A DNA stretch of 64,000 nt from an uncultured delta proteobacterium (GTDB taxonomy: Bacteria; Desulfobacterota; Desulfomonilia; UBA1062): contig CAVVYZ010000022.1 in NCBI GenBank assembly GCA_963752595.1, positions 1-64,000 on the forward strand, read 5' to 3'. The position numbers and the translations under genes were made by a program. Positions within the stretch are counted from its first letter, which is position 1. Every line of letters starts with the position of its first letter. The notes under the pieces were generated by a model. The model did no database searches. It worked only from the letters and a program-made list of their open reading frames with translations, and was not told the origin of the DNA. This document shows, one piece after another, positions 4,635 through 50,225 of the stretch.

Positions 4635-6497
4635 CTAATCGCTGCCGACCTGGGCAAGCCTCTCTTCGAACACGGCATTATGCTTGTCGAAGGCATGGGT
4701 CAGCTCTTCGAGCTCCTTGAACAGGGCCTCGATTTCCTCTTCGCAGGTATGGATCTCCATGGAAATGGCGGTTATCCGCTTGCCGTCCTTTGCATGAGCC
4801 GCCTCCTGCATGGCGATATTGAGCTCCTTGATCCTCTTTTCCCGGGTGTCGATTCCGTGCTCTGCCTTTTCAATGCCGCGCTCCAGGGGGCCGAGGATCT
4901 TCGAGCGCTTGGTGATGATCTCTGCGCGCCTTTTGCGCAGCTCTTTCTTGTCGAGCTTGTCGCTGCCTTCCTTCTCGGTTTTGCCTTTCCTGGCGGAAGA
5001 CAGGGTTTCTTCTTCGTCCCCCCATCCCCCCTTGTCGAGGAACCTCTGGTAGCCGCCCTCAAAGACCTCGATGGAATCGTGGAAGAAGATAATGAGCCTT
5101 TCTGCTAGTGCATGGAGGAACATCTCGTTGTGGGTCACCATGACCACGGCGCCGTCGAAGTTGTCGATGGCTGCGAGCAGAGCATCGCTCGATTCCATGT
5201 CGAGGTGGTTCGTGGGCTCGTCGAGCAGGAGCAGGTTCACCGGGGTCACCAGGAGCTTGCCCAGCATCACCCTGCTTTTCTCCCCGCCGGAGAGGACCTC
5301 GATCTTTTTCAGGGCATTGTCGCCCTCGAACATCATAGCGCCGCAGATGTCCCGTGCCTTCTGGCGGTCGACATCGCCGGCGGCATACATGATCTCCTCT
5401 TCCACGCTCCTCGAATCAACGAGGGTTGAGACATTGGTCTGATCGAAGGTGCCCCTGATAGCCTTGGGATTCAGGGTGAGCTCGCCGTGAAGGGGCTTGA
5501 GCCCGCCGGAGAGGAGCTTTAAGAGCGTGGTCTTTCCTTTGCCGTTGGGGCCGATGATGCATACCTTCTCCCCGGGCCTCAGGGTAATGGTAAAGTCCTT
5601 GATGAGATCGAGCTCGGGATTGTACGAGAAAGTCAGATCGGTCGCCTGGAGTACGTACTTGCCCACAAAGGGTGCGTACTTGAAGGAAAAATCGAGGTCT
5701 TTGATCTTTACCAGCTTATCCTTTTTCTCCATCTTCTCCAGCGTTTTGACCCTCGACTGGACCATGCCCACAAGCCTGGCCTTTGCTCTGAACTGGGTGA
5801 TGAAGTGCTCGACCTCTTTCCTGCGGCGTTCGTCGTTCTGGCGGGTCTTCTCGTAGATTTCTTCTTCCTGGGCGACCTGGGTATAGTATTTGCCGGTGTC
5901 ACCCTCGATCTTCTTGATCTTTTTGCGATGGATGCCCATGGTGTGCGTCACGATCCTGTCCATGAACGTCCTGTCATGGGTGATGATGATGAGCTCGCTG
6001 GGCCATGCGATAAGGAACTTCTCGATCCAGCGGATCGAGGTGATGTCCAGGTAGTTGGTCGGCTCGTCGAGGAGAAGGATGTCGGGCTCCGATACGAGGA
6101 CCTTGGCAAGGTTCAGCCTCACCTGGTAGCCGCCCGAGAACTCATACGGGCTGCGCTCCATGTCCGACTGGGAGAACCCGAGACCGGCGAGCACCTTTTC
6201 AACCTTCCAGTGCTGCTCCTTCTGGTTTGCAGGCAGGCCTTTCATTCCCTCCGCGAGCACGGTGTCCTCGGTGAAGTCGAGATGCTGCCTCACGTAGCCG
6301 ATGCGGTAGTTCCTGGGTACGACTATCTGGCCGTCATCCGGGCTCTCTTCGCCCACGATCATCCTCAAGAGCGTTGTCTTGCCGTGGCCGTTCCTCCCCA
6401 CAAGGCCCACGCGCTCTTTGGGGTTGATCTTGAAGCTGCCGCCTTCGATAAGGGTCTGCCGGGCATAGCTCTTGGTGAGATTTTCTGCGCTGATCAT
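4635..6497 (-). CDS. ABC-F family ribosome-associated ATPase
   Basis: Two ABC domains (GRNGHGKT/FSGG/LLLDEPTN and GPNGKGKT/LSGGE/LLLDEPTNHLD), no transmembrane segments, C-terminal coiled coil. Confidence 0.95.
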   Translation of the reverse strand: MISAENLTKSYARQTLIEGGSFKINPKERVGLVGRNGHGKTTLLRMIVGEESPDDGQIVVPRNYRIGYVRQHLDFTEDTVLAEGMKGLPANQKEQHWKVEKVLAGLGFSQSDMERSPYEFSGGYQVRLNLAKVLVSEPDILLLDEPTNYLDITSIRWIEKFLIAWPSELIIITHDRTFMDRIVTHTMGIHRKKIKKIEGDTGKYYTQVAQEEEIYEKTRQNDERRRKEVEHFITQFRAKARLVGMVQSRVKTLEKMEKKDKLVKIKDLDFSFKYAPFVGKYVLQATDLTFSYNPELDLIKDFTITLRPGEKVCIIGPNGKGKTTLLKLLSGGLKPLHGELTLNPKAIRGTFDQTNVSTLVDSRSVEEEIMYAAGDVDRQKARDICGAMMFEGDNALKKIEVLSGGEKSRVMLGKLLVTPVNLLLLDEPTNHLDMESSDALLAAIDNFDGAVVMVTHNEMFLHALAERLIIFFHDSIEVFEGGYQRFLDKGGWGDEEETLSSARKGKTEKEGSDKLDKKELRKRRAEIITKRSKILGPLERGIEKAEHGIDTREKRIKELNIAMQEAAHAKDGKRITAISMEIHTCEEEIEALFKELEELTHAFDKHNAVFEERLAQVGSD

Positions 6498-29074: not shown

Positions 29075-30711
29075 TCACTCAGTAGCCTGATTCTCCCGGT
29101 AGTCGCAGCTCGCCTTGATGAAGTCCCTGAAGAGGGGATGGGCATGCATGGGCTTGGACTTGAACTCCGGGTGGAACTGGCAGCCGAGGAACCAGGGATG
29201 GTCTTCCAGCTCGATGATCTCCACAAGGCCGATCTCCGGGTTGCGGCCGCTGATGATGAGGCCGCCGTTTACCAGGGCCTGTCTCAAGGCGGGGTTGAAC
29301 TCATAGCGGTGGCGGTGGCGCTCGGAGATTTCGCCCGACTCGTAGGCCTGCAGGGCGTTGGTTCCTTCGGCGAGGATGCACGCGGTAGGCGCCGAGACGC
29401 ATGGTGCCGCCTTTCTTCTTGATGTTCTTCTGCCCGGGGAGGAATTCGATGACCGGATTCTTTGCCTTCTGGTCGAACTCGGTGCTGTTCGCTCCGTCGA
29501 GCCCGCATACGTTGCCTGGCATACTCGATCACGGCGAGCTGCATGCCGAGGCAGATGCCGAAGAAGGGGATCTTGTGCGTCCGTGCATACGCGATGGCCC
29601 TGATTTTCCCCTCGACGCCCCGCTCCCCGAACCCTCCAGGAATAAGCACGCCGTGGATGTTCTTGAAGTGGCCCGAGATATCGTCCTGCTCAGTCAGGCT
29701 GTCGGCGTCGACATAAATCCGGTTCACCCGGGTTTTATTGGCCAGGCCGGCATGTTCGAGGGCCTCGTTCAGGCTCTTGTAGGAATCGGTGAGCTTGACA
29801 TACTTGCCCACCACCGCGATATTCACCTCGCACGGTGCGGTTGCTCGAATGTCTCATGAGATGTTCCCACCCCTGCATCATGGGCTCCCTGGTCCATATG
29901 TTGAGATACTCCACGATGCGGTCGTCAAGGCCCTCGCGGTGAAACTCAACGGGAACCTGGTAGATGTTGTTCACATCAACGGCATTGATGACGGCCTCCC
30001 TCTCCACGTTGCAGAACAGGGCGATCTTTTCCTTCAGGTCATGGAGAGAGCCTTTGCTCCGACCTGCAGAGCAGGATCTGGGGCTGGATGCCGATCTCGC
30101 GGAGCTTCTGCACCGAGTGCTGCGTCGGCTTTGTCTTGAGTTCGCCTGCGGTGGCGATATACGGCACAAGGGTCAGATGGATGTAGAGGACGTTGGTCCT
30201 GCCCATATCGAAACCGAACTGGCGGATGGCCTCGAGAAAGGGCAGAGATTCGATATCGCCCACCGTGCCGCCGATCTCGACGATGGCGATGTCGTTGCCG
30301 TTGGCCGACTTCGATGATGCGGTTCTTTGATCTCGTCGGTGATATGGGGGATGACCTGGACGGTCTTGCCCAGATAGTCGCCGTTTCGTCTCCTTCTGGA
30401 TGACCGAGTCATAGATCTGTGCCGGTGGTGAAATTGTTCTTGGCGCTCAAGTGTGACGAGGTGAAACGCTCGTAGTGCCCCAGGTCGAGGTCGGTTTCGG
30501 CGCCGTCATCGGTGACAAATACCTCGCCGTGCTGGAAGGGACTCATGGTTCCCGGGTCTACATTGATATATGGATCGAGCTTGATATTGGTGACTTTCAG
30601 CCCCCTCGCCTCCATGATTGCCCCGATCGATGCTGCTGCAAGGCCTTTGCCCAGAGATGAAAGCACACCGCCGGTAATGAAAATATACTTCGTGGATTTG
30701 TTGGTCGACAT
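29075..30711 (-). CDS. pyrG: CTP synthase, several frameshifts
   Basis: [57 protein letters not shown] and QFHPEF. Confidence 0.96.
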
Positions 30712-30808
30712 GTCAGATACCTACTCCATGCAGTGTGGATGTGTCAAGGAAGGATGCTTCGCCTCCTTTGACGCAAGATAGTAAAACAACATCGTATTTA
30801 GCCCCATT

Positions 30809-34022
<3,214 letters not shown>

Positions 34023-34080
34023 GGTACTCCTTGATCGTGTTTTCGGCTTTCTTAAGTATATGAGCCGTACATGAATTTCA

Positions 34081-34114
34081 AGTATACACCCCATGTCTCC
34101 ACAGGGTGTATACT
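34081..34114. promoter_or_regulatory. Perfect 11-bp inverted repeat upstream of carB
   Basis: AGTATACACCC-N12-GGGTGTATACT; function unknown. Confidence 0.5.
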
Positions 34115-34159
34115 ATGGTGTCTCTGATGAACCCTACATCCTCTCCGATCCGATGCAGG

Positions 34160-35123
34160 TCAGCCGATTTCCTTGATTTTCACGCCCTTCTTGACCAGTG
34201 CCTTTTTATTGGCAAGCAGCTCTCTGCCGGCAATTCTGTCCAGTACATAGATCAGGTCTCCTCCATTTTCGGCGTATGTCTGCCCATAAGAAATCGGGAT
34301 CTCCGCCGATGGATCGTCGAGTATCGACTGGGTTATCGGCTCGACTTTGCGCTCCCCGTTTGCCAGGAGCATGACTGTCTTTGCCTTGATAGACAAGCTC
34401 TGCCCCCATGGAAATGGCATAATTGGGAGAATCTTTCTTTGCGGCGAAGTGGCCGTCAGTCACTGCGTTCGTGACCGTATTGTCGTCGAGTTTGACGAGC
34501 ATGACACTGCTTCCCTTGAAGGGGATGCCGGATTCATGGAAGGCCACATGGCCTCTGCCGCCGACGCCGATGATCTGCAGGTCAATGCCGCCCATTTTCT
34601 TGATCTTCCGGGCGTAGCCGTCCAGTATCTCTTTCTTTACCCATCCCAGGTATTCGGAGTCCGGGTTGTTCCTGATGACTATCGACTTTCCCTTGTCCGT
34701 TCCTTTTGCTTCCCAGTCTTTCGGGTTGGCCTTCAGTTCGGCTATGAGCTTCTTCTGTTCGATGAGCGAGCCATAGGGCACATTGGTTTCAATGAACTTG
34801 TCCTTCAGAAGGCTGAAGAATTCCTGGATCATGAAGTAGGCATAGCTCTCGGGATGCATGACGCGATGCTGGACATTGTCGCCCGGCAGGCCGACATACT
34901 CGTCCAGGTTGAAGCTCCGGCACCTGGTGGAGTCGAACTCACCCTTGTTGGCCGCCTGTGCGAGGTGCTTGTAGAGCCCGGTGGGGGAATTGCCCGTTGC
35001 AAGCCCCAGAACGGCCTCTTTCTTTTCTTTCAACATCTCCTGGATTTTCTTTTTGGCGATATCTGCAGCAGACTTACTCAAAGCTGTCAAAATCTTTCGG
35101 TAACGATGAATCTGGATCCCCAT
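34160..35123 (-). CDS. nagB: Glucosamine-6-phosphate deaminase-like protein, frameshift near 34390
   Basis: LGLATGNSP, FNLDEYVG, GGIDLQIIGVGGRGHVAFHE and AISMG. Confidence 0.82.
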
Positions 35124-35165
35124 TGATCAGCCTCCTCTCTTCTCAGGGTGTAGCATGATGTATGA

Positions 35166-36531
35166 TTAAACTGCCTCACTCATTCCGAGCATCTTTTCCA
35201 CAAGCTCCGCCAATTGGGTGCAATACTTCTCCGTGACGGCGTCCGACGGCCCTTCGACCATTACCCGGCACATGTTCTGCGTCCCGGAATAACGGATCAG
35301 GATGCGCCCCTCATCGCCGAGCTCTTTCTCCACCTGGCTGATCGCTTCCCTCAGCTCCGGCACCGTGGAGATGTCCGGTTTGCTCTTCACGTTCACGTTG
35401 ATCAGTTTCTGAGGAAAGACGTCCATCATCTTTGCCAGCTCGGACAGCGGCTTGCCCGCCTTTGCCATGGCTGCAACGAGCTGCAAGGCGGTGAGGATGC
35501 CGTCACCCGTGGTGTGGTGGTTGAGGAAGATCATGTGCCCCGACTCTTCGCCGCCGATGATACCTCCCATGCTGAGCATGTCCTCGAGCACGTAGCGGTC
35601 TCCCACCTTTGCGGCGTGATGCCGGTAGCCGTACTTTTTGCACGCCACTCTCAACCCGAGATTGCTCATTACCGTGCTTACCAGGAGGTCATTCTTCAGC
35701 TTTCCCTCTTCCTTCAACATCCGGGAACATATGAGGAGAATCTGGTCTCCGGTGATCTCATGTCCCTTTTCATCGACTGCAATGAGCCGGTCGCCGTCCC
35801 CGTCAAAGGCCAGCCCGATTGCCGCCCCTGTTTCCAGGACTTTCTTCTTCAGGTCATCGGTATGCTGGGAGCCGCACTTGTCATTGATGTTCAATCCATT
35901 GGGCGTATTGTGGATGACATCCACTTCGGCACCGAGCTCGGTGAATGCCTCCGGCGCGACCCTGTACGTTGCCCCGTTGGCCGTGTCCATGACTATCTTC
36001 ATCCCTTCCATGGAAAAATCGCGCGGGAAGGTGTTTTTCAGGAAAACGACGTATCGTCCGTTCGACATCTTCCATGCGATAGGCCTGCCCCATCTCTTTT
36101 GCATGAGGCAGGAGCTCGGCCAGCTTGCCGCCCAGCATGAGGTCTTCGATGGTATTTTCTTTCTCATCCGAAAGCTTGAATCCATTCCCGCCGAAGATCT
36201 TGATCCCGTTATCCTCATAGGGGTTGTGGGAAGCGGAGATGACGATGCCCGCATCGGCCCGCATGCTGTTCGCGATAAAGGCTATGCCCGGTGTGGGGAG
36301 CACGCCGACCAGGTAGGGATTTCCCCCCATGGACGATATGCCGGCTTCAAGGGAGCTTTCGAGCATGTAGCCCGAAATGCGCGTGTCTTTGCCGATGATG
36401 ATCCTTGTGCGGTGGTGTTCTTTCCTCAGAAGGTATGTCACTGCCTGACCTACCTTGAAAGCCATCTCCGCATTCATGGGGTAGCGGTTTGCCTCGCCGC
36501 GTATCCCGTCAGTGCCGAAAAGTTTGCCCAT
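35166..36531 (-). CDS. glmM: Phosphoglucosamine mutase, one frameshift
   Basis: [38 protein letters not shown] and RYSGT. Confidence 0.96.
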
Positions 36532-36560
36532 CGAATCCTCCTTTGATAGTTGGGTTTTAC

Positions 36561-37820
36561 TTAAATATGTTGCTTCTGGAACAACTCCAGGCCGGGCATG
36601 GCAGTCGAGACTGTGTTGCAGCAATTGGCCACGACGCATTCCAGCCATCTTGTACCTTTTGAAGAGACATCCGCGGGCAGTCCCTGTATGGTTTCGACAT
36701 AACTGCCGGGACCCCCCTGCACAGACCTGTCCAATCCGGTGAGGAATTCTTCCCTCAAGGTCTTCGTTTGCGAATCCGGAGCTGCATCTCCTTCGAATAT
36801 TCCCTGGACTTTATGAATATTACTTCCCAGGTCGTTCCTCAAGCGCTCGGTTCTCTCCGACCGGGAAGGCTCTGAAGCAGAGGCCCGCTTGGCCATTGCC
36901 TCAAGTCGTTTAAGCCGTTCTTTTCCGGCCAGCGAGAGTTTGTCGAGGAGACCCGCATGGATGAGCGGGCCGAATTCCTGGTTGTCGAGGAAGGGCTTGC
37001 GTACGTGAATGTACCACTCCTTCAAGGCCTTAAGGTTTGCGAGATAGATGATATTATTCTCCACAACGCGAAGCAGGTTCGGATACAGAGCAGGCAGATA
37101 ATCCTTGATGCACCCGGATTGGGTTTTGCCTACGATCAGTCTGTTGTCCCCGGGGCAGTCTTCCCTCAGCACCGAGCCTGCAGCCACGACATTGCCGAAG
37201 CCCATGCGCAACGGACCCACGATTCCCCCCTGTCCTCCCAGGAATATGGCCGGCTGGTTCAGCATGACGCCTCTGGCTACATCGCCGATAAGGGAGGCGG
37301 TTGTCTTGTCCCCGTCAGGGGTGAAATTGAAGTGGATGTAAGAGCTTCCCACCTCGCTGTGATCCTTCCGGCTGGTCCCCCCGGACATAAGGCAGTCGCA
37401 GAAGTTGATGAGACTGCCCAAGGTGACGAAGGGAAAGAGGATGGTCTGTTTGAGGCCGACGCAGTGGGCCCCGCCCGCCTCCTCTTCCAGAATGGATCCT
37501 TCACGGACATGGGCGCCTAAGCCCATGTTCGATTTGTCTAGGAATACGGATTTGCTGAAATAGCCGCCCTTGAGCTCCACATCCTGCCCGATCTGGCAGT
37601 TCTCGATCGTGACAGGCCCTTCACGGCCTATCTGGGCCCCTGACGATATGACGGTGTCCTTGCCGTATATCCTGCACCCGGGAAAGATCTTGACCTTACT
37701 AGCGGAAATCCGGTCAATGTCGACCTCCTTCCCGATGTCGAGGGTCAGGGGATTGGGGATGTCGATCCCCTTGTTGATCATCTGCACGATTTTCTCGTGG
37801 CACTGCGGTTTCAAGTCCAT
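36561..37820 (-). CDS. GlmU-like left-handed beta-helix acetyltransferase without a nucleotidyltransferase domain
   Basis: Starts KGIDIPNP (like the GlmU linker), then hexapeptide repeats, AHVREGS and HFNF..DG.KT. No LAAGxGTRM motif. RBS GGAGG before ATG 37820. Confidence 0.75.
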
Positions 37821-37872
37821 CTGTTCCTCCTCATACCGTGATATGGAAACCGGATAGTGTATCAGAAGATTT

Positions 37873-37933
37873 CTCGCAGCCTGCTGCGAGGACACTCCTT
37901 TTTCCTCTCCCCCCGAGGGAGAGGAAAAAGGAG
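37873..37933. repeat. Two adjacent hairpins, including a perfect 17-bp pyrimidine/purine inverted repeat
   Basis: CTCGCAGC-ct-GCTGCGAG, then CTCCTTTTTCCTCTCCC-cccga-GGGAGAGGAAAAAGGAG. Confidence 0.75.
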
Positions 37934-37991
37934 AGGGGGGAGAATAAATTCAATGCCTCTTGAGCCATGGCTGCCTTCACATCCTTCCGTT

Positions 37992-40900
37992 TCATGAGCT
38001 CCTGAACCTTTCGAATATCATATTTTTGATTACTTCAACATCCTCTCCGAGAAGCATCCTTACGGGCAGGCCCTTGAGATAATCGTCGCTCCAGGTGATA
38101 TTGTACTCGTCGATGAGGTTCTTGATGTCGCCGTACTTCTCTCCCAAGATCTCCTTTTTCTGTTCGATGCCCATTGCCTCGTTGTATTCCACGTGGAGCA
38201 GAAGAAGGTGTCCCACTATCTTCAGTGAATTCAGAAGCGGGATGATGATGATGGAGGCATGGTCCGATTTCCCCTCGCCTGCATAGACATCGCCGGTACG
38301 GACGATGGTTTTCTTGGTGCCCATGAGGGGGCCGGTGGTGTCAAATCTTGAGGGCATGCCCTCGGCGACTCCATTTTTCTTCGAGATTGTTATGGTGGAT
38401 GAATCATTCGGCTTACCCGCCCCATCGAGATCCCTGATGACATAGAGGGTGTAGCCGGTGATCTTCGTTATGGCCTCCTGAAGGCGTTTCAAGGTGAGCC
38501 CGTCTCTTGCCGGAATTTTCTCGATGGTGAACGAGAGTTCTTTGAGCGTTTCGAAGATGATGCCCCGGGGAGGCTCGATACGTCTGCTCGTGCCCACGGT
38601 CACGGTCTTTGCCTGGTGCCGGATCGCATCTACGGGCCGGGAGAGCTCATCGATGGCCCTAGCGATGGTCATGTCGAGCCTGTCGATGGGCGAAGAGGTT
38701 ACCTTGAGCTCGCCGTACTCGGTCCAGAAGTCTTCCAGAGGGAGCTTGCCCACCGCATATTTCATGAGCAGCACGATGTCTGAAGCGGTCTCTACATTCA
38801 TGTTGGACAGATGGCCCGAACGTCTCCAGGCGTTGAACGGGGAGCTGAAATCTTCCACCAGGCGGTAGAGGTCCTGGTCCTGGATGGAGTCGTAGAGGGA
38901 GAGCTTTCTGCTTTCCAGGCTCCGCATGATCTCGGCGAGGCTCGAGCGGAAGGTTCTGAAGGCGGCGGATTGGGAGTCGAGGCTGCAGGCGGCATAGTAT
39001 CCCCAGATGTGCCCTGCCAGGGTGTTAAGGATGACGGATTGGGGGAAGGATGACCTCGGCACATGGATCACGGACTCGGCAATCCTGTCGAACCGGTGCT
39101 CCCCCTCATCCACGATAACCACGACGCTGGATGAGTGCGCATTGAATATGGCCACATCCTTGATGATGTCCTCGAGCACCATTTCAGGTGTTCCTGCCGC
39201 GCACACGAGGATAAGGGGTTCCGAGGAGAGGTCGATGTGCTTCTTGTCCTCGATGATGTCCGAGGATATGGTCTTGTAGCAGAGCTCGCTCAGCTTTATG
39301 CGGATCTCGTCGGATGCCGTCTTGTTGGTGCCGCTTCCCACGACTGCCCAGTATTTCTTCTTTCTCGCCATGTCCCAGGCTGATTTCTTGATGGACTCTC
39401 TCTCGTTGATAACCCTGAGCATCAGCTTCGGGGCCTTCTCGAGCTGCACGAGTTCTTTTGCCACCAGGTTGTTCGGAAGTGAACGCAGTATCTGCGCAAA
39501 ATACAGGGAGAGGATATAACCGGCGGTTATCTGTGAGTAGAAGGCCTTGGTGGAAGCAACGGACATCTCGATGTCGCGGCCGTCGCTCGTGTAGAAGACG
39601 CCGTCCACCTTGGTCGTGATGTCGGACTGCCGCCTGTTTACGATGGCTATGAGATGGGCGCCCCTATTCCTGGCCATGGTGACGGCCCTGTTCGTGTCCG
39701 TGGTGGTGCCCGACTGAGTGATGGCGATGACCAGGGAGGCTGACATGTCATCGTCCAGGCAGAAGCCGCTCAGGTCCGATGCCTTTCTTGCCTGTACCGT
39801 GATATTCGTACCTTTGAGATAGATCCACAATGCCTCTGCAATGGCAGACCCGGCGATGGCTGCGGTTCCCTGACCAACCACGTAGATGCTCCTGATTTTT
39901 CCCGACGCCAGGGCTTCCCGGATCCTCTGGGGCACGACATCCTCGTCGAGGTTGAACGTAACGGCCTCGTTCTCGATGAGATACTTGCCCCGCATAGTCT
40001 TCCTGATGGACTGGGGGGCGTCGAGAATCTCCTTGAGCAGGAAGTGGGGGAACTCGCCCCGGTCGATGTCGCGGGTGGTTATCTCCGCACTCTGCACATC
40101 CTTTTGGCTGAGGTCGAGGGGATATCCGTCATAGTACAAGGCCTCGATCCCGGCAAGCCCGGGCCCTTTGTTGCTGTGAAGGATAAAAATCTGTCCTCTG
40201 CTTCTCTCGTTGCCCGGGATGTGCTCTTTCTCGCCGTCCATCTTGATGAAGTCCGGGGTCTCCTCCACGAGGCCGTAGACCTCGGATGAGAATACGTACT
40301 GGTGGTCGCAGATGCCCACGTAGATGGTCTGGCCGCTCCCTTTCTGGGCCAGGAAAACCTTGCCCGGCTCCAGGTTGCTCTCCATGGCAATGGCGTGGGA
40401 CCCGTCGAAATCGTTCAGCGCAAGGCGGAAGGCCTCCTTGAGATCATGACCGTCATAGAGATACCGCTCGATCTGCAAAGGGATTATCTTCGTATCCGTC
40501 GTAACCCTCGTATCGATGGACTTATCGACCGCTTCGAAATCCTTTTTCAGGACAGGGTAGTTGTCGATATCGCCGTTGAGCACAACGCTGATGGTCCAGG
40601 GCCCCTTTCCATAGAAAGGATACTTCTTCAAGCTCTGGGAGAAATTCCACTGGTCATCCCCGAAGGAGCCCACGCTGAAATTGTTTACCGGGTGGCAATT
40701 TGCCTCGTTGATGGAACCCACGGACGCCCACCTCGTGTGTGCCAGGTACATCTGGGTGTCCGGGGCATGCTCCACCGTGAGATGGAGGATGGCGTCTTCC
40801 TGGATGGACTTCCTGAGATTTTTCGTATTGTCCCCGAGGTCTCCGGTTATCTGTGCCGTCTTGTAGGTGAAGACAAGGGATTCGGGACAAAGGTTGATGG

Positions 40901-41699
40901 AGTTGTTCCAGAGGTCTCCGGGCGAGCAGCGCCGCACGAATTCCTCGTAGAGATCTTCGGATCTGATCTTGTCGATGACCTTTTTTATCTCTTTCGGGTG
41001 AGAGAACTGAAAGGAGAACTGTATTCCGCATGAATCCCTTCCGCGCACCTCAAGCCGGTCGAGGGCATTGAGGTTGAAATTGATCCTCTGGTACTTCTCA
41101 AAGGCACTCGAAGAGAGCTTGACGCCGTTTCCTCGGAGATCCGAGATCTTTTTCCGGTTCTTGAGCACATCCTCACGAAGACCCCAGGAGATGTCTTTCA
41201 GGTGGATGAGCCTCTTGGTCAGAACCTCCATCTCACGCGTGGAAAAGGAGACCGCTTTCTTCTCCAGGAGCTTTTCTTCACTGTCGGCGAAGTTCCCCAG
41301 ATCGCTGCAGAGGCCTGTCAGCCGGTCCAGGGAGGACTTGTGGAAGAGTCTCCACTGGTCCTGGGGACTCTGCTTCAGGCCGTAGAGATCCTTATCAAAA
41401 GTGGAGAGCACCTCGGGGTTGAGATAATCCTTTGGCTCAAAGGACCCGGCAAAAATCTTCTCAAGCGATCTCTCCTGAACCCGCCCGAAATGGTCAGAGA
41501 GCCTTTTCACGGTATGATCAGCATGGGGTGTGTCTTTGCCTTTGATAATCAGGACACCTGCCAGACCGCAGGTGAGCACATCGGGCATGCACGGGAAGAG
41601 GGTAATGGTCCGGCCGGGCAGCAGATCAGGGTTTCGCCCGATATGGAATCTCCATTTCCCCGCATTCTGCATAAGGGTGCTGATAATGCTTTTCATCAT
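37992..41699 (-). CDS. Giant GlmS-like protein (class II GATase + two SIS domains + extensions), 1235 aa
   Basis: CGLAG, LEVRGRDS, HTRWAS, NCHP, NGDIDN, TDT, QSGTT.DT, SVASTKAF, IKLSELCY, DKKH and AKTVTV map onto GlmS motifs. Confidence 0.88.
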   Translation of the reverse strand: MMKSIISTLMQNAGKWRFHIGRNPDLLPGRTITLFPCMPDVLTCGLAGVLIIKGKDTPHADHTVKRLSDHFGRVQERSLEKIFAGSFEPKDYLNPEVLSTFDKDLYGLKQSPQDQWRLFHKSSLDRLTGLCSDLGNFADSEEKLLEKKAVSFSTREMEVLTKRLIHLKDISWGLREDVLKNRKKISDLRGNGVKLSSSAFEKYQRINFNLNALDRLEVRGRDSCGIQFSFQFSHPKEIKKVIDKIRSEDLYEEFVRRCSPGDLWNNSINLCPESLVFTYKTAQITGDLGDNTKNLRKSIQEDAILHLTVEHAPDTQMYLAHTRWASVGSINEANCHPVNNFSVGSFGDDQWNFSQSLKKYPFYGKGPWTISVVLNGDIDNYPVLKKDFEAVDKSIDTRVTTDTKIIPLQIERYLYDGHDLKEAFRLALNDFDGSHAIAMESNLEPGKVFLAQKGSGQTIYVGICDHQYVFSSEVYGLVEETPDFIKMDGEKEHIPGNERSRGQIFILHSNKGPGLAGIEALYYDGYPLDLSQKDVQSAEITTRDIDRGEFPHFLLKEILDAPQSIRKTMRGKYLIENEAVTFNLDEDVVPQRIREALASGKIRSIYVVGQGTAAIAGSAIAEALWIYLKGTNITVQARKASDLSGFCLDDDMSASLVIAITQSGTTTDTNRAVTMARNRGAHLIAIVNRRQSDITTKVDGVFYTSDGRDIEMSVASTKAFYSQITAGYILSLYFAQILRSLPNNLVAKELVQLEKAPKLMLRVINERESIKKSAWDMARKKKYWAVVGSGTNKTASDEIRIKLSELCYKTISSDIIEDKKHIDLSSEPLILVCAAGTPEMVLEDIIKDVAIFNAHSSSVVVIVDEGEHRFDRIAESVIHVPRSSFPQSVILNTLAGHIWGYYAACSLDSQSAAFRTFRSSLAEIMRSLESRKLSLYDSIQDQDLYRLVEDFSSPFNAWRRSGHLSNMNVETASDIVLLMKYAVGKLPLEDFWTEYGELKVTSSPIDRLDMTIARAIDELSRPVDAIRHQAKTVTVGTSRRIEPPRGIIFETLKELSFTIEKIPARDGLTLKRLQEAITKITGYTLYVIRDLDGAGKPNDSSTITISKKNGVAEGMPSRFDTTGPLMGTKKTIVRTGDVYAGEGKSDHASIIIIPLLNSLKIVGHLLLLHVEYNEAMGIEQKKEILGEKYGDIKNLIDEYNITWSDDYLKGLPVRMLLGEDVEVIKNMIFERFRSS

Positions 41700-42000
41700 A
41701 TTTTATCTTTATGTGGGAACCGCCTTCAATTTCAGATCCCGTGTCGCATGATAGTATGTTTTATCGCTACCTTGCAATAGAAAATCAAGAGGGCATCGGG
41801 CATGCACGGGATGAGTGCAATGGTCCGGCAGTGCAGCAGATAGGGGTTACGCCCGATAGGGAAACACCATTTACCGGCGTTCTGCATAAGGGTGCTGATA
41901 ATGCTTTTCATCATATTCTATCTCTACGTGGAAGCGGTCTTTAGTTTCAAATCCCGTATCCTATGCCTATAATAATATGTTTCATCGCTACCTTGCAAAA
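41580..42000 (-). repeat. Diverged tandem duplication (~215-bp period) of the GlmS-like 5' region
   Basis: 41580-41780 aligns with 41795-42000. Copy 2 encodes MMKSIISTLMQNAGKWCFPIGRNPYLLHCRTIALIPCMPD (ORF 41732-41914). Confidence 0.92.
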
Positions 42001-42024
42001 TTAACTAAACATGAAGCAGTATCT

Positions 42025-43161
42025 TCAAGAGCTTCTATGACGCTTCATTTCTTCCCTAAACTCGGCAAAGAGGTAATGCGAATCGTGAGGCCCGGGAGAT
42101 GCCTCTGGATGGTACTGGACGCTGAAAGCCTTCACGGAATGATACCTGATGCCCTCCAGCGTGTTGTCGTTGAGATTTACATGGGTTACCTCTGCATCAG
42201 AAGGCAGGGTCCCGCTGACCACAACAAACCCGTGGTTCTGGGAAGTGATCTCTATCCTGTTGTTCTTAAGATTCTTGACCGGTTGGTTGGCCCCGTGATG
42301 GCCGAACTTGAGCTTCTCGGTTCTGGCCCCCAGAGCCTGACCCAGGATCTGGTGGCCCAGGCATATGCCGAATATGGGGACTTTGCCCAGCAGGCCCTGT
42401 ACTGTTTTGATCTCGCTGTGCAATGGCTCCGGATCGCCGGGGCCGTTGGAAAGGAGCACCCCGTCCGGCTCCAGAGAGAGTATCCGATCGGCACTTGTGT
42501 GGCAGGGCATGACGACAACCCGGCACCCGGTTTGCTCCAGGCTTCTCAGGATGTTGAACTTTACCCCGCAATCGAGGACCACGACCCGTAAATCACCGTT
42601 TTTCGCCGGTAGCGGTTCAGCTGGCAGGGCCGATCCTCCCTTCCAGAAGTACGGCTCCGTGCTGCTCACCTGCGATACGATATCGCGGCCCACGAGCCCG
42701 GGATACTTGCGGAGCTTTTCCAGCAGCTCGGGAATCCTGTTCGCATCGGACGATACGATGCCGCACATGGAGCCGCGGGAACGAAGCCTCCTGGTCAGGG
42801 CTCTGGTGTCGATGCCTTCCACGCCGATCTTGCCGTGTTCTTCCAGATAACTTTTAAGGGTTTTTTTCGATCTCCAGTTGCTGGGAACAGCCTGGTATTC
42901 TTTTACAATGAAGCCCTCAAGGTGGATCTTCCGGGATTCCATATCCTCTTCATTGATCCCGTAGCTCCCGATGAGCGGATAGGTCATGACAAGGATCTGC
43001 TCTTTGTACGAGGGATCGGTGAGCACTTCCTGGTAGCCTGTCATGGCGGTGTTGAATACCACCTCTCCGATGGCGTCATCCCGGTCGGCAAACACGCGGC
43101 CTTTAAAGACCGAACCGTCTTCCAGGACAACGACAGCCGCTTTTTTATTTCGTAACGACAA
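42025..43161 (-). CDS. carA: Carbamoyl-phosphate synthase small subunit
   Basis: GEVVFNTAMTGYQE, LSNGPGDP, GICLGHQ, SQNHGF and QYHPEASPGP. Confidence 0.97.
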   Translation of the reverse strand: MSLRNKKAAVVVLEDGSVFKGRVFADRDDAIGEVVFNTAMTGYQEVLTDPSYKEQILVMTYPLIGSYGINEEDMESRKIHLEGFIVKEYQAVPSNWRSKKTLKSYLEEHGKIGVEGIDTRALTRRLRSRGSMCGIVSSDANRIPELLEKLRKYPGLVGRDIVSQVSSTEPYFWKGGSALPAEPLPAKNGDLRVVVLDCGVKFNILRSLEQTGCRVVVMPCHTSADRILSLEPDGVLLSNGPGDPEPLHSEIKTVQGLLGKVPIFGICLGHQILGQALGARTEKLKFGHHGANQPVKNLKNNRIEITSQNHGFVVVSGTLPSDAEVTHVNLNDNTLEGIRYHSVKAFSVQYHPEASPGPHDSHYLFAEFREEMKRHRSS

Positions 43162-45672: not shown

Positions 45673-47310
45673 CTAAACAACGTGTTTGATCTTGAGTCGC
45701 TCCGCAGTATGGTAGTCATCGATGCCGATGGCATCGGACATGCCGATGGGGAGCGAAGTGGATCTCCCAAGAGGTGCGAGGATCTTCTTGAGTTCGGAAT
45801 CAAAGCTCAGGAATACATCCACCACCCTCTGGGCAACGTCTTCCGGATCGAGGCGGCGGTAGAGCCTCGGGTCCTGGGAGGTTATGCCTTTCGGGCACAG
45901 GCCGATGTTGCAGATATTGCACCGGTCATTCTCCGAGCCGACGCACCCTGCAGCGGCCTGCATCATATATTTGCCGACCTGTACGCCGCTCGCACCGAGC
46001 ATGATCAACGCAGCAGCGTTGGCAGCGAGGTTTCCGTTTTTCCCGATACCGCCGCCTGCGAAAATGGGGATCTCGTTCTGTTTTCCGATCTTCACGAGAT
46101 TGAGGTATGCATCGCGTATATTGCTGGCTATGGGATGGCCCATGTGATTCATGGAGACGTTGTAGGCAGCGCCTGTTCCGCCGTCCTCGCCGTCTATGGC
46201 GAGCGCTGCGGCATACGGGTTGCGGGCAAGGTTATTGAGGACTGCCAATGAAGTCGTGGTCGCGGATATCTTGGGATACACAGGCACCCGGAAGCCCCAG
46301 GCCATGTACATGGACTGGATCATCTTGGCCACGGATTCCTCGATGGAATACTTGGTCTGGTGAGTCGGGGGCGAAGGCAGGCTCACCCTCGGGGGAACTC
46401 CCCGGATGGCGGCGATGAGCTTGTTGACCTTGTGCCACATGAGCAGTCCGCCGTCACCGGGTTTTGCGCCCTGGCCGTACTTGACCTCGATTGCACAGGG
46501 GTCTTCCTTCATCTCGGGCAGGGCATGGATGATCTCGTCCCAGCCGAAATACCCGCTCGCTATCTGGAGGATGACGTACTTGATGAAGCGCGACTCAGAA
46601 GCCTCGGCGGGCAGCCTCCTTCGCCGGTGCACATCCTGACGGGCATGCCGAGTTCTTCATTCAGGTACGCAACGCCCATCTGGAGCCCTTCCCACATGTT
46701 GGGCGAGAGGGCGCCGAAGGACATGCCGCCGATGATCAGCGGGTAGATCTCCCGTACCGGCGGTATCCAGCCTTTCTTTGATGAAGACTTGATCATTCTT
46801 CGGGGGGCAGGATCCTGCCCAGAAGGGTCCTCAGCTCGAACTCGTGCCTGCCTGCATCCAGCGCAGGGTCCGTGAGCATGGAGATCCGGACGAACTTGAT
46901 GCGGTCGAGCAGGCTTCGCAGAGTCGTTCCTCCGGCCGCCCCTGCGTCTCGGCTCGCCGTTCGCATTGATATGAAACCTGAGCTTGTCGATCTCCTCGTT
47001 GCGGACAGGGTAGATGGCGCTAGTTGGGGCAGACCAGCGTGCACATGCCGCACCCGATGCATGCATGGCCGGGTCGGTGACCTGACTGATCCCGTGATAG
47101 ACGCCATATACATTCCTGGGCTTTCCGGTCAGGCCCACGGACGTTGGGTATCTCGCTCTTCCGGTGCACACCCAGCTCGATTGCCTGCAGCGGGCACACG
47201 GCCGTGCAGTGTCCCGCACAGCGTGCACTTTTCCTTATCCCAGAGGATACTGCCACAGGAGATCCTTGCGTGCTTAGTGTGGATGGGTGCAGGGTTCCCA
47301 TTGGTTCCAT
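45673..47310 (-). CDS. Glutamate synthase FMN-binding subunit with N-terminal ferredoxin, frameshifted
   Basis: GGMSFGALS, TGEGG, QIASG.FG, EVKYGQGAKPGDGG, DGEDGGTGAA and C...CPKGITSQDP. Confidence 0.9.
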
Positions 47311-48406
47311 CTCTTGACCTCTATCTCGTGCATGCATCTACAAATGCGATGTCGTACTTCATTGGCTGAAATTCGTAGTTCTTTTGTCCGGTCGGGGATG
47401 GCCTCTTCAAGCCCGCACATCTCGGAAGAAAAGGCGAATACTGCCCGGCTTCCGCCCACCACACCCGGCCTGAGCTTCTTGCTGTCATGGACCATGAAGA
47501 GGGTTTTGTCGGGCAGGCAGCCGATGACGCAATTCGGCCCGTCAATGGTGAGGAACCTGCAGCTGTGCTTGAGCTGGCGCAGGAATGGCCTGTCCGGATG
47601 CCTTAGAGCTCCTCGTCTTTGAGCGGCGTAATGATATGCTTATATGCATCCAGCCCCAGTCCCAGGCTGTTATGGTGTAGTGCAGGATGTGGGTGAATAC
47701 CTCGGAATCCGATTGATAGCCCATATATCCCGGGATAACCCCTGGAGGTGAGATATTCCCGTATGGGCATGAACGCGGTATTCTCTCCGTTGGTCATGGT
47801 GGCAAGCCCTGGAGGAAGAACGGATGGCAGGCATACAGGGTGATGGCGTAGTTCGTGTTCTGCCTCCCCTGGGCCATGATGATCCGTGCCTTGAGACCTT
47901 TGCGGTCAAGGCCGAGGTACTCGGCGATCTCCATGGGGTCCCCCACTTCCTTGATCATGATGATGTCGGGCCAGAAGGAGAAGACCATCATGGAGCCGTC
48001 TTCTTCACCCAAGCTTCTCAGGTCGATCCTGATCTGCATGAGCCTTCTGTGATCTCTGCCTCGCTGAAAGCCCGTCCCAATCGTAGGGATATTCATATAC
48101 CCGGATGAGGTATACGTCCCTTTCGGGTGTGCCCGCCGGCGGTTCCGTGGAAGGGCGGATGGAGAATTTGAATTTGGTGAGCAGTCCGAGCTCCATCATA
48201 TAGCGGTCGAGCTTCTTGATCCCTTCCTGGGAAAAGATCCCGGAGAGGATGGGCGAGCCTTTGAACGGCTCCAGATCTCCGCCCAGATCGGTCATGAAGA
48301 TGCCGACGCCTGAGCCGTCATGGCCTTCTTTCATGACGTCCAGTGCCCGCATTGCCACCATGGGAGAAATGGGTTCTTCACTGGTTATGGCAAACAATCG
48401 GCACAC
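47274..48406 (-). CDS. Glutamate synthase class II amidotransferase subunit, many frameshifts
   Basis: N-terminal MCRL (Ntn Cys2), GHDGSG, QGRQNTN, HPF, NGENT, SDSEV and KLRP. Confidence 0.85.
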
Positions 48407-48703
48407 GGTTTCATATCTCCTCCTTGCTGTCTATCTTGTATCCGTATCTGGTGCGAGAATCCATGCCACCCGGCGTGATTGCCGTGCGTCTTTTACAGAC
48501 ACTACGATATAGATTTGGTCAACTCAATGATTTCAGGGATATATATAGTAAACGGTCGAATCAATCGATCTGTCAGATTATTTGTCGCATTAATCATCTA
48601 GTACTCATATGCTCCATTTTTTAATATTGTTAATAGCCCCTATATTGAACAATATTGTTATACAACCTCTCATTCATATGACTGCTCGCTGCGTATGCGG
48701 GAA

Positions 48704-50225
48704 TCAGGACGACTTCTTATTTTTAAACCTCTTGACCTCGATCCCATATTTCTCCACTTTATATTGAATGATGCGCTTTGTGGTTCCCAGCATCCGCGCA
48801 GCCTGAGCTCTGGTTACCCTGGCATCCTTCAGCGCATCGATGATCAGGGAACGCTCATAGGAATTTACCAGGCTGGTACAGCTTGCCCTGCTGTTTCTTG
48901 TCTCGAGGGGTAACGACCTTCATCTGGAGGGAGGGAGGAAGATGGATGCTGTCAATGGTATCGCCGTTTGCGAGAGCACTGCCCGCTCGATGCAGTTTTC
49001 CAGCTCGCGCACATTGCCCGGCCAGTGATATGCCAGCAGGAGATCGATGGCCGGAGTGGAGATCCGCTTGATGTTCTTCTTGAACTGCTTCGTGTATTTT
49101 TCCACGAAAGTAATCGGCGAGAAGGATGATGTCGCCTCCCCGCTCCCTGAGGGCGGCATGTAGATAGGGAACACATTGAGCCGGTAATAGAGATCGGCCC
49201 GGAATTTGCCGGCTGCCACATCCTGGTCCAGGTTGCGGTTCGTGGCCGCGATGATGCGGACATTCACCTTGACGATCCCTGGTGCCCAAAGGCTGGAACT
49301 GCCTTTCCTGGATGACCCGCAGGAGCTTGGCCTGTGCCAGCGGCGAGAGCTCGCCCACCTCGTCGAGAAAGATCGTGCCTCCATTGGCCTCTTCGAACCG
49401 CCCGCTTCGTCTTCTGGTGGCCCCGGTAAAGGCGCCCTTCTCATGCCCGAACAGCTCGCTTTCGATCAGGGTGTCGGGCATGGCTGCACAGTTGACCTCG
49501 ATAAAGGGCCGTTCGGCTCTCGGGGGCTGTTCTGGTGAATGGTCTCGCCACGAGCTCTTTGCCGGTCCCTGTCTCTCCATGGATCAGCGCCGTGGTATTG
49601 GAGTCGGCTACCTGAGAGATCAGCCCGAAGATCTCTTTCATGCTCTTGGAATTGCCGATGATCTCAGCCGATGGCCTCTGGGTCCGGCCAGAATGTTCCT
49701 CAGCTTCCGGTTTTCTTCTTCAACGGCCCGCATGTGGACGCCTTTGCGATAAGCCTGCCACTGCCGAGAGGAACTGGATCTCATAATCCTGATTATCCAC
49801 TTCGTGTGCGACCTTGTCTGCCGAGAGAACACCTACAACCTTTCCGTCATATACAATGGGGACGCAGAGAAACGCAAGCTCGGAACGATCAAGGTATTTC
49901 CTTGCACCGGTGCTGTCGAGAAAATGCTCTTCGCCCCGATGTTTGCAATGACCATGGGTTTCCCTGTCTGGGCCACCTGGCCGGTAATACCCTCGCCCGG
50001 CTTATAGGTGATATCCAATCCGTCTATGTCCACTCCGCAAGCCAGATCAAGGATGGCCTCCCCCGTATCTCTATCGAGGATGGAGATCATCCCGCGATTC
50101 ATCCCGGACTGTTCGCTCATCGTACTGAGGACCTTCTCGAGCTGCTCCCTTAGGTCGAGCGGTGATGCAATGATCTGAGCCAGGCCGTGAAGGACTTCGA
50201 GATCGTCATATGAAAATGAATTCAT
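48704..50225 (-). CDS. NifA-like sigma54 enhancer-binding protein (GAF-AAA+-HTH), many frameshifts
   Basis: GAF region ([14 protein letters not shown]), [34 protein letters not shown] and a C-terminal Fis-type HTH. Confidence 0.9.

Follow-up and report, generated by a model that had tools for sequence, protein, structure and literature searches.

The first amino-sugar precursor for building the cell wall is supplied by glutamine:fructose-6-phosphate amidotransferase (GlmS), which is essential, has been studied in depth and is a drug target. A stretch of 64,000 nucleotides from an uncultured delta proteobacterium of the Desulfomonilia (GenBank assembly GCA_963752595.1, contig CAVVYZ010000022.1, positions 1 to 64,000; hereafter the window) carries on its minus strand a gene for a GlmS-like protein, twice the usual size, whose nucleophilic cysteine lies behind a 43-residue leader. 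We consider this long form very likely to be a GlmS by function, and probably a glutamine-dependent one made as a proenzyme that would cleave off its own leader, by analogy with the amidotransferases PurF and GltB. The gene and the parts of its product are listed below, with the basis of each call in brackets (ORF, open reading frame; Ntn, N-terminal nucleophile; aa, amino acids).

37992..41699, minus strand: long-form glmS gene (P0001), 1235 aa (ORF call, family searches)
41571..41699, minus strand: 43-aa leader, putative propeptide (codon check, homolog alignment, model, codon analysis)
41568..41570, minus strand: Cys44, equivalent of the N-terminal nucleophile Cys1 (superposition on 1xff residue 1, alignment)
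40065..41570, minus strand: class II (Ntn) glutaminase domain with inserts, residues 44-545 (Pfam, model superposition)
41085..41540, minus strand: insert 1, residues 54-205, predicted helical bundle (model, fold search)
38964..40064, minus strand: two SIS subdomains (isomerase), residues 546-912 (Pfam, structure relatives, alignment)
38625..38963, minus strand: insert 2, residues 913-1025, predicted four-helix bundle (model, alignment)
38574..38624, minus strand: internalised C-tail motif, K1031 = Lys603 (alignment, codon check)
37995..38573, minus strand: C-terminal module, residues 1043-1235, weakly PAS/GAF-like core plus helices (model, fold search)

The ORF holds 1235 codons' worth of protein with no internal stops, and the Cys44 codon (TGC, 41568-41570) follows a threonine codon (ACC), the length and the Thr being as reported by an earlier reading of this DNA made without database searches (the sequence-only reading). 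The extra material described there was also borne out, save for one count. The motif LEVRGRDS begins 172 residues past the Cys in the long form vs 22 in E. coli GlmS, which accounts for the roughly 150 additional residues claimed; the motifs IKLSELCY, DKKH and AKTVTV lie at residues 801, 818 and 1030, and a His-to-Lys spacing of 210 vs 99 in E. coli GlmS places a second insert of ~110 aa ahead of AKTVTV; the tail beyond that motif is present and comes to 200 aa rather than ~190. Pfam recognises GATase_6/7 and SIS domains in the protein, its top NCBIfam matches are two GlmS models, both below cut-off (223.6 bits vs a cut-off of 418.05 for TIGR01135), and the closest solved structures by sequence are GFAT1 and GlmS, although identity to E. 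coli GlmS is only 22%. The CGxxG motif is found in 117 of the 120 best homologs, the other three being partial, most commonly at position 42-47; these homologs share 53-87% identity with the window protein and are mostly ~1200-1290 aa long, and because they keep this length the long size is not an assembly error. Frameshifted genes do occur elsewhere in the assembly (glmM, carB and pyrG), and the long glmS ORF still matches that of a relative, locus L007, end to end (residues 1-1235, 77% identity). A scan of named genomes with this one protein gave one locus. The genes broken into overlapping frames, at 29735-36648 and 45673-50225, are pyrG, carB, glmM, a glutamate-synthase-like gene and a sigma-54 regulator gene; the breaks are probably assembly indels.

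Two AlphaFold2 models describe the architecture, one of residues 1-545 (107 alignment rows; predicted local distance difference test, pLDDT, 89.9) and one of residues 905-1235 (144 rows; pLDDT 89.7; predicted TM-score 0.57). Residues 44-540 superpose on the E. coli glutaminase over its full 238 residues (1xff 1-238; Z 29.1, root-mean-square deviation 1.9), and since this superposition starts at Cys44, that residue corresponds to Cys1; the model thus has a class II Ntn glutaminase fold with its nucleophilic Cys at the first strand. In the models insert 1 falls after the first strand and before the Arg26 helix, and the four-helix bundle of insert 2 leads into the Lys motif, which is followed by an alpha/beta module. 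The structure prediction of the inserts proposed in the sequence-only reading returned helical bundles, for which fold searches gave generic helical-bundle matches only (Z up to 9.5); Pfam had no match on insert 1 or the C-terminal tail. For the 905-1235 model Foldseek returned nothing with E under 0.001, the top rows being mostly GAF, PAS and Cache domains, and on realignment the C-terminal module gave weak matches of Z 6-7 to many such chains. Its ~190 aa match best to residues 174-361 of 7jsr (Z 9.9, root-mean-square deviation 4.7, 167 aligned), a weak match at 8% identity and Foldseek E 0.013 to what is itself an ab initio model at 6.3 A; the module looks weakly PAS/GAF-like, a lead rather than an assignment. 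For the extra regulatory domains suggested by the sequence-only reading, this fold match of the tail is the one sign. A search of an atlas with the C-terminal tail gave unannotated clusters only, all under 0.8. A count of the positions conserved at 95% or more across 233 long forms gives 55 for residues 206-545, 93 for the SIS pair and 15 for the 27-residue tail motif region; for the add-ons it gives three (insert 1), none (913-1015) and 10 (C-terminal module), so these regions hold their shape better than their sequence. Both helical inserts, like the PAS/GAF-like tail, also occur in members that start Met-Cys, and all three are probably structural or allosteric additions older than the leader.

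These 233 proteins comprise 131 leader-bearing forms, 101 Met-Cys forms and one revertant, partial proteins and doubtful starts having been left out. The glutaminase equivalents of Cys1, Arg26, Arg73, Trp74, Asn98, Gly99 and Asp123 are invariant in all 233, as are the isomerase-half equivalents of Gln348, Ser349, Thr352, Ser401, Lys485, Glu488, His504 and Lys603; a subset of the catalytic positions, rechecked in further divergent members, was invariant in 66 of 66. The numbering of Arg26, Arg73, Asn98 and Asp123 follows an alignment to E. coli GlmS. The isomerase-site residues that the sequence-only reading saw as kept correspond to Lys485 (K802), Glu488 (E805), His504 (H821) and Lys603 (K1031). 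A review of the enzyme assigns catalytic roles to Cys1, Glu488, His504 and Lys603 (PMC9272926).

The distribution of the long form likewise points to GlmS function. A canonical glmS elsewhere in the genome, which the sequence-only reading had suggested looking for, was not found in this 84% complete genome. Among 301 genomes of the phylum the long form occurs in 31 and a canonical glmS above cut-off in 259; in each of the 31, TIGR01135 finds just one match, with E between 1e-50 and 1e-72, which means that a canonical gene is absent, and three of the 31 are assembled in 1-3 contigs. At E 1e-30, 41 related genomes divided into 32 matched via the long form only, five with canonical glmS and four with no match; on follow-up a long-form fragment appeared in one of the five (G012) and in one of the four, the long form was not found in the other four canonical-glmS genomes, and in G008, G009 and G021 neither form was detected with the queries used. 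Phylum lists were matched by eye, the 301- and 41-genome samples overlap, and kin are not independent. The exclusion holds even inside one family (f2; 12 long and four canonical among 16 genomes). Mutual exclusion of the two forms is near-complete, and the long form likely replaces ordinary GlmS as the cell's only glutamine:fructose-6-phosphate amidotransferase. The proposal of a distinct GlmS subfamily is thus supported by conserved catalytic residues, fold, exclusion and the tree described below.

The leader that sets many of these proteins apart was followed in 132 sequences. It is ~30-55 aa long and net basic (mean +4), with an amphipathic first helix (moment 0.51 vs 0.32 for shuffled sequences, higher in 90 of 99), a Pro at -8 relative to the Cys in 132 of 132, and a residue at -2 that is nearly always hydrophobic. 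In the model it forms a basic amphipathic helix (residues 2-13), short strands (17-20 and 31-34) and a low-confidence linker (37-42), with pLDDT ~78 for residues 11-30 and under 50 in the linker before the Cys. A start codon at -1 is absent from all 40 loci that were picked for having an open stretch like the leader; the nearest start is at least 26 codons upstream in 12 of them, and 19 have an ATG at -42. Identity by codon position over -14 to -1 (0.50/0.67/0.34) is protein-like, and the ratio of nonsynonymous to synonymous substitution rates (dN/dS) is 0.17-0.19; the leader is protein-coding and under purifying selection. A leader profile run over the window's own genome found no further leader-like ORF except the upstream duplicate treated below. 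As a Sec, Tat or lipoprotein signal the leader was rejected (lipobox 0/129, twin-Arg 0/129, longest apolar run 5-7 in 124/129), and a YPxYG loop insert was dismissed as its dock, the leader forms L054-L063 occurring also without that insert. Prediction of a complex between the leader (1-43) and the glutaminase domain (44-545) gave no answer (score 0.01). Two DNA sequencing runs covered pieces only, the leader not among them, and no RNA run was listed as carrying the sequence.

In the maturation that we favour, the Cys44 thiol would, after folding, attack the preceding peptide bond in cis, an N-to-S acyl shift being followed by hydrolysis, and removal of the 43-residue leader would expose Cys44 as the N-terminal nucleophile. 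The mature enzyme would then resemble E. coli GlmS, with fructose 6-phosphate bound by the SIS pair (K1031, E805, H821), glutamine hydrolysed at Cys44 and ammonia travelling past a gate at W324. That the working enzyme has a free N-terminal Cys is suggested by the intact glutaminase site, the Met-Cys sisters and the revertant; and because the leader is translated and the working enzyme needs Cys as its N-terminus, the leader would have to come off. Class II amidotransferase precursors of this kind are described as cleaving in cis in the literature on GPRAT (PMC7056826) and on MEROPS family C44 (PMC3207474, PMC5753285). The window's own genome encodes a PurF (L002, G000:C22:72412-73089, just past the window) with a propeptide-type start and two Glu before its Cys. 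The leader may be a folding aid, a membrane tether or a maturation switch. A full regulatory switch, in which the amphipathic helix would keep pro-GlmS inactive or membrane-bound, with substrate or a ligand bound by the PAS/GAF-like tail controlling cleavage, is a minority prospect to which we give a low but real chance; if it were so, cell-wall precursor supply would be set by zymogen activation rather than by the ribozyme, small-RNA or feedback control of other GlmS.

Several observations weigh against self-cleavage of a glutamine-dependent GlmS. The -1 residue is variable (F47, C31, N16 and P10 among the 132), and Pro at -1 is known from intein work to be unfavourable for the N-S shift. Acidic residues right before the Cys are typical of PurF-type precursors, and acidic -1/-2 residues as in the genome's own PurF occur in 0 of 129 leaders. 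All long forms carry the changes Tyr28 to Arg, His77 to Val/Asn, Glu125 to Lys and Ser303 to Ala, and among the 233 proteins we found no leader-specific change of the glutaminase site that is absent from the revertant. G012 holds both GlmS forms, although with 690 contigs, 7% contamination and the canonical gene on a 1.7-kb contig it is a doubtful case as the sole exception to exclusion in the second genome set; the window's genome, moreover, is only 84% complete. Cleavage and activity of the long GlmS are here inferred from sequence. Part of this pattern would suit a host protease that cut the leader of the same enzyme in trans, at a conserved hydrophobic-Pro-x6-hydrophobic-x pattern: the spacing is fixed by Pro at -8 and a hydrophobic residue at -2, the -1 position is free and includes Pro in 10 of 132, and a PurF-like acidic site is absent. 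The linker at 37-42, left unresolved in the model and counted by us for self-cleavage, would as an exposed, low-confidence segment serve a protease as well. We nevertheless regard a protease as rather improbable, since precursors of class II amidotransferases are described as cis-cleaving (PMC3207474, PMC7056826); the six tracked neighbours differ between loci, and no search was made for a co-occurring protease.

The remaining alternatives fare worse. Were the leader retained, the enzyme would use free ammonia at the isomerase site or hydrolyse glutamine without a free alpha-amine; a leader core predicted to fold (pLDDT ~78 for residues 11-30) and conserved over many families, the occurrence of Pro at -1, and the nagB and carA genes nearby in the window's own family are all compatible with this. 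Against it, the glutamine site shows no variation at any of its residues in 131 of 131 leader forms, nor in the 101 Met-Cys forms, and one lineage has gone back to Met-Cys without further site changes; GlmS is reported to be unable to use ammonia (PMC9272926), and E. coli variants with the Cys deleted or changed to Ala fail to complement (PMC11822699). We judge retention quite unlikely, and the ammonia dependence offered as an option by the sequence-only reading, set against the invariant Cys1, Arg73, Trp74, Asn98, Gly99 and Asp123, unlikely as well. Amination of another sugar phosphate, or some other role, with glucosamine 6-phosphate drawn from reverse NagB or from uptake, would fit the sub-threshold family scores (223.6 vs 418.05 bits), the 22% identity to E. 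coli GlmS, the Ala at Ser303 in all long forms and the nagB-like gene in the cluster; it is very unlikely in view of the near-complete exclusion with canonical glmS, within f2 included, the glmM and GlmU-half genes downstream and the retention of the remaining phosphate-site residues. Least credible of all is an untranslated leader, with translation beginning at the Cys or close to it, or with the region acting as a regulatory RNA. The window gene does have an in-frame ATG at -6 and a GTG at -3, and its 5' region is tandemly duplicated, as some riboswitches are; the start-codon counts, codon-position identities and dN/dS values given above speak for a protein, and Rfam had no match on 41400-42300 at E up to 5.

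Several known systems come close to the long form. Like bacterial GlmS (E. coli, 608 aa mature; 1xff, 4amv, 2j6h; TIGR01135), the long form has an Ntn glutaminase fold, an SIS pair and the catalytic residues, and its role is suggested by exclusion and neighbours; unlike bacterial GlmS, it is twice the size, with a leader before the Cys, helical inserts of ~150 and ~110 aa, a Lys603 motif that is internal with 200 aa after it, and changes at Tyr28, His77, Glu125 and Ser303. Canonical GlmS forms a homodimer via its isomerase domains and starts Met-Cys, the Cys being exposed by methionine aminopeptidase. The window protein lacks this start, and it neither ends at the Lys603 tail after ~610 aa nor scores over the cut-off. 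Described lengths of GlmS run from 589 to 716 aa, with the Cys at the N-terminus and the catalytic tail at the C-terminus (PMC9272926). With the propeptide class II amidotransferases (PurF/GPRAT of B. subtilis and plants, GltB; family C44) the long form shares a translated extension before an intact Ntn Cys, but here the extension sits on a GlmS, is basic, ~30-55 aa long and invariant for Pro at -8, and lacks their acidic -1/-2 residues. GFAT1 (6r4e), the second-best fold family (Z 27.6), is also a larger GlmS homolog with a glutaminase-domain insert, but has 687 aa, aligns from residue 2 of its chain with no leader in the structure, and has no module after the Lys motif. The large glutamate dehydrogenase L-GDH180 (7jsr), like the long GlmS, is a nitrogen enzyme enlarged by add-on modules; its N-terminal segment contains ACT-like and PAS-type modules, for which a role as metabolic sensors has been proposed (PMC8175468). 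A literature search of incomplete coverage found no published study of the long GlmS.

The size and the leader appear to have separate histories. From the best 150 matches in a 50%-cluster library, 69 full-length representatives were drawn: 50 start Met-Cys, 11 have a leader (nine by profile, two by eye), two have another short extension and six lack the motif as called; relatives of L065 also begin Met-Cys. The doubt raised by the sequence-only reading, that homologs might start Met-Cys and an indel explain the leader, was thus right for most homologs and wrong about the indel. In a FastTree phylogeny of 66 long forms and four canonical outgroups, on a long outgroup branch that leaves the root unsure, the 21 leader forms all group together (Shimodaira-Hasegawa-like support 100), with two Met-Cys rows nested among them. 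On 20 rows, monophyly of all Met-Cys forms is rejected (approximately unbiased test, p 2e-5). The nested locus L057, in a one-contig genome, has ATG-TGC 3 nt past the stop of the upstream gene; of the two nested rows, L057 and P0282, L057 has its Met-Cys start confirmed in DNA. Because Met-Cys groups form the rest of the tree, a single gain of the leader, in one clade, is the simplest reading; it was cleanly lost again at least once, in the L057 revertant. Since the leader is a conserved, derived trait of one clade, size and leader are two separate innovations. One leader-bearing homolog, P0112 (1 of 117), has a Met immediately before its Cys; a change of this type is a possible route to leader loss.

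Roughly one in ten of the genomes sampled from the phylum appears to have the 1100-1250 aa form in place of GlmS, and this form also occurs in other phyla. Sources of homologs near the leader clade include Desulfomonilia, Syntrophales, Desulfobacterales and Aminicenantes, those in the Met-Cys search include Desulfomonile, Rhodospirillum centenum and Rhodocista, and atlas clusters of long-form length come from Planctomycetota, Actinomycetota and Myxococcota, each on 1-2 members. Long forms are often annotated merely as 'SIS domain-containing protein', and with this label and scores below the family cut-off, pathway reconstructions can miss them. Met-Cys ancestors, the leader clade, the revertant and a probably decaying detached copy make up a natural series for studying how an Ntn enzyme gains a propeptide and what purpose it serves, and an E. 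coli selection already exists (PMC11822699), allowing a direct test of the long GlmS. Two oddities accompany these searches. A 427-aa frame in a long-form genome (G019:C37:88470-89510) matches the GlmS isomerase half only, and six representatives (P0371, P0392, P0396, P0404, P0405 and P0415) run to 1795-4006 aa, some with several matched stretches, and may be fusions or read-through artefacts.

The detached copy lies directly upstream of the long glmS gene.

41732..41998, minus strand: degenerate tandem duplicate of the 5' region plus leader, 215-nt spacing, 84%, with a 60-aa ORF at 41732-41914 (repeat and codon analysis)

The duplicate takes in a promoter-like region as well as the leader; it is common to L007, with the same junction (copy at 6001-6183), and went undetected in the loci of eight further genomes of the genus. 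Its ~60-aa ORF is open in both the window species and L007. A comparison of these two species shows 8 of 41 residues differing in the attached leader (dN/dS 0.17) and 22 of 41 in the detached copy (dN/dS 0.54; Fisher p 0.003); for the body of the long GlmS dN/dS is 0.15. The leader and duplicate values rest on one species pair and may be blurred by gene conversion. The duplicate is probably decaying, and its ORF could affect glmS translation.

Downstream of the long glmS gene lie three further genes of amino-sugar type.

36561..37895, minus strand: GlmU acetyltransferase (beta-helix) half-like gene (NCBIfam, neighbourhood and GlmU comparison)
35166..36648, minus strand: glmM-like phosphohexomutase, frameshifted here, intact (454 aa) in L007 (Pfam, L007 comparison)
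34206..35123, minus strand: nagB-like glucosamine-6-phosphate deaminase (Pfam, NCBIfam)

By gene content the cluster reads as an amino-sugar pathway, and outside the window's own family the neighbours of long glmS vary. GlmU looks to be split in this family. The ~420-aa gene beside long glmS matches GlmU 239-446 only, with a second copy (49%) on another contig (G000:C2, L069), and a uridyltransferase-side gene, typically ~340 aa and covering model positions 3-330, lies elsewhere (L067 at G000:C5:230805-231782). Because a GlmU match above cut-off occurs in 0 of 25 genomes of the family and in 16 of 16 of a sister family, the beta-helix gene likely supplies the missing activity, as a stand-alone glucosamine-1-phosphate acetyltransferase. 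Within the window the amino-sugar genes sit between carA and carB, followed by pyrG (30409-43161, minus strand); carA, long glmS and carB are adjacent in L015, L024 and L039, and several glutamine-using enzymes are grouped at the long-glmS cluster.

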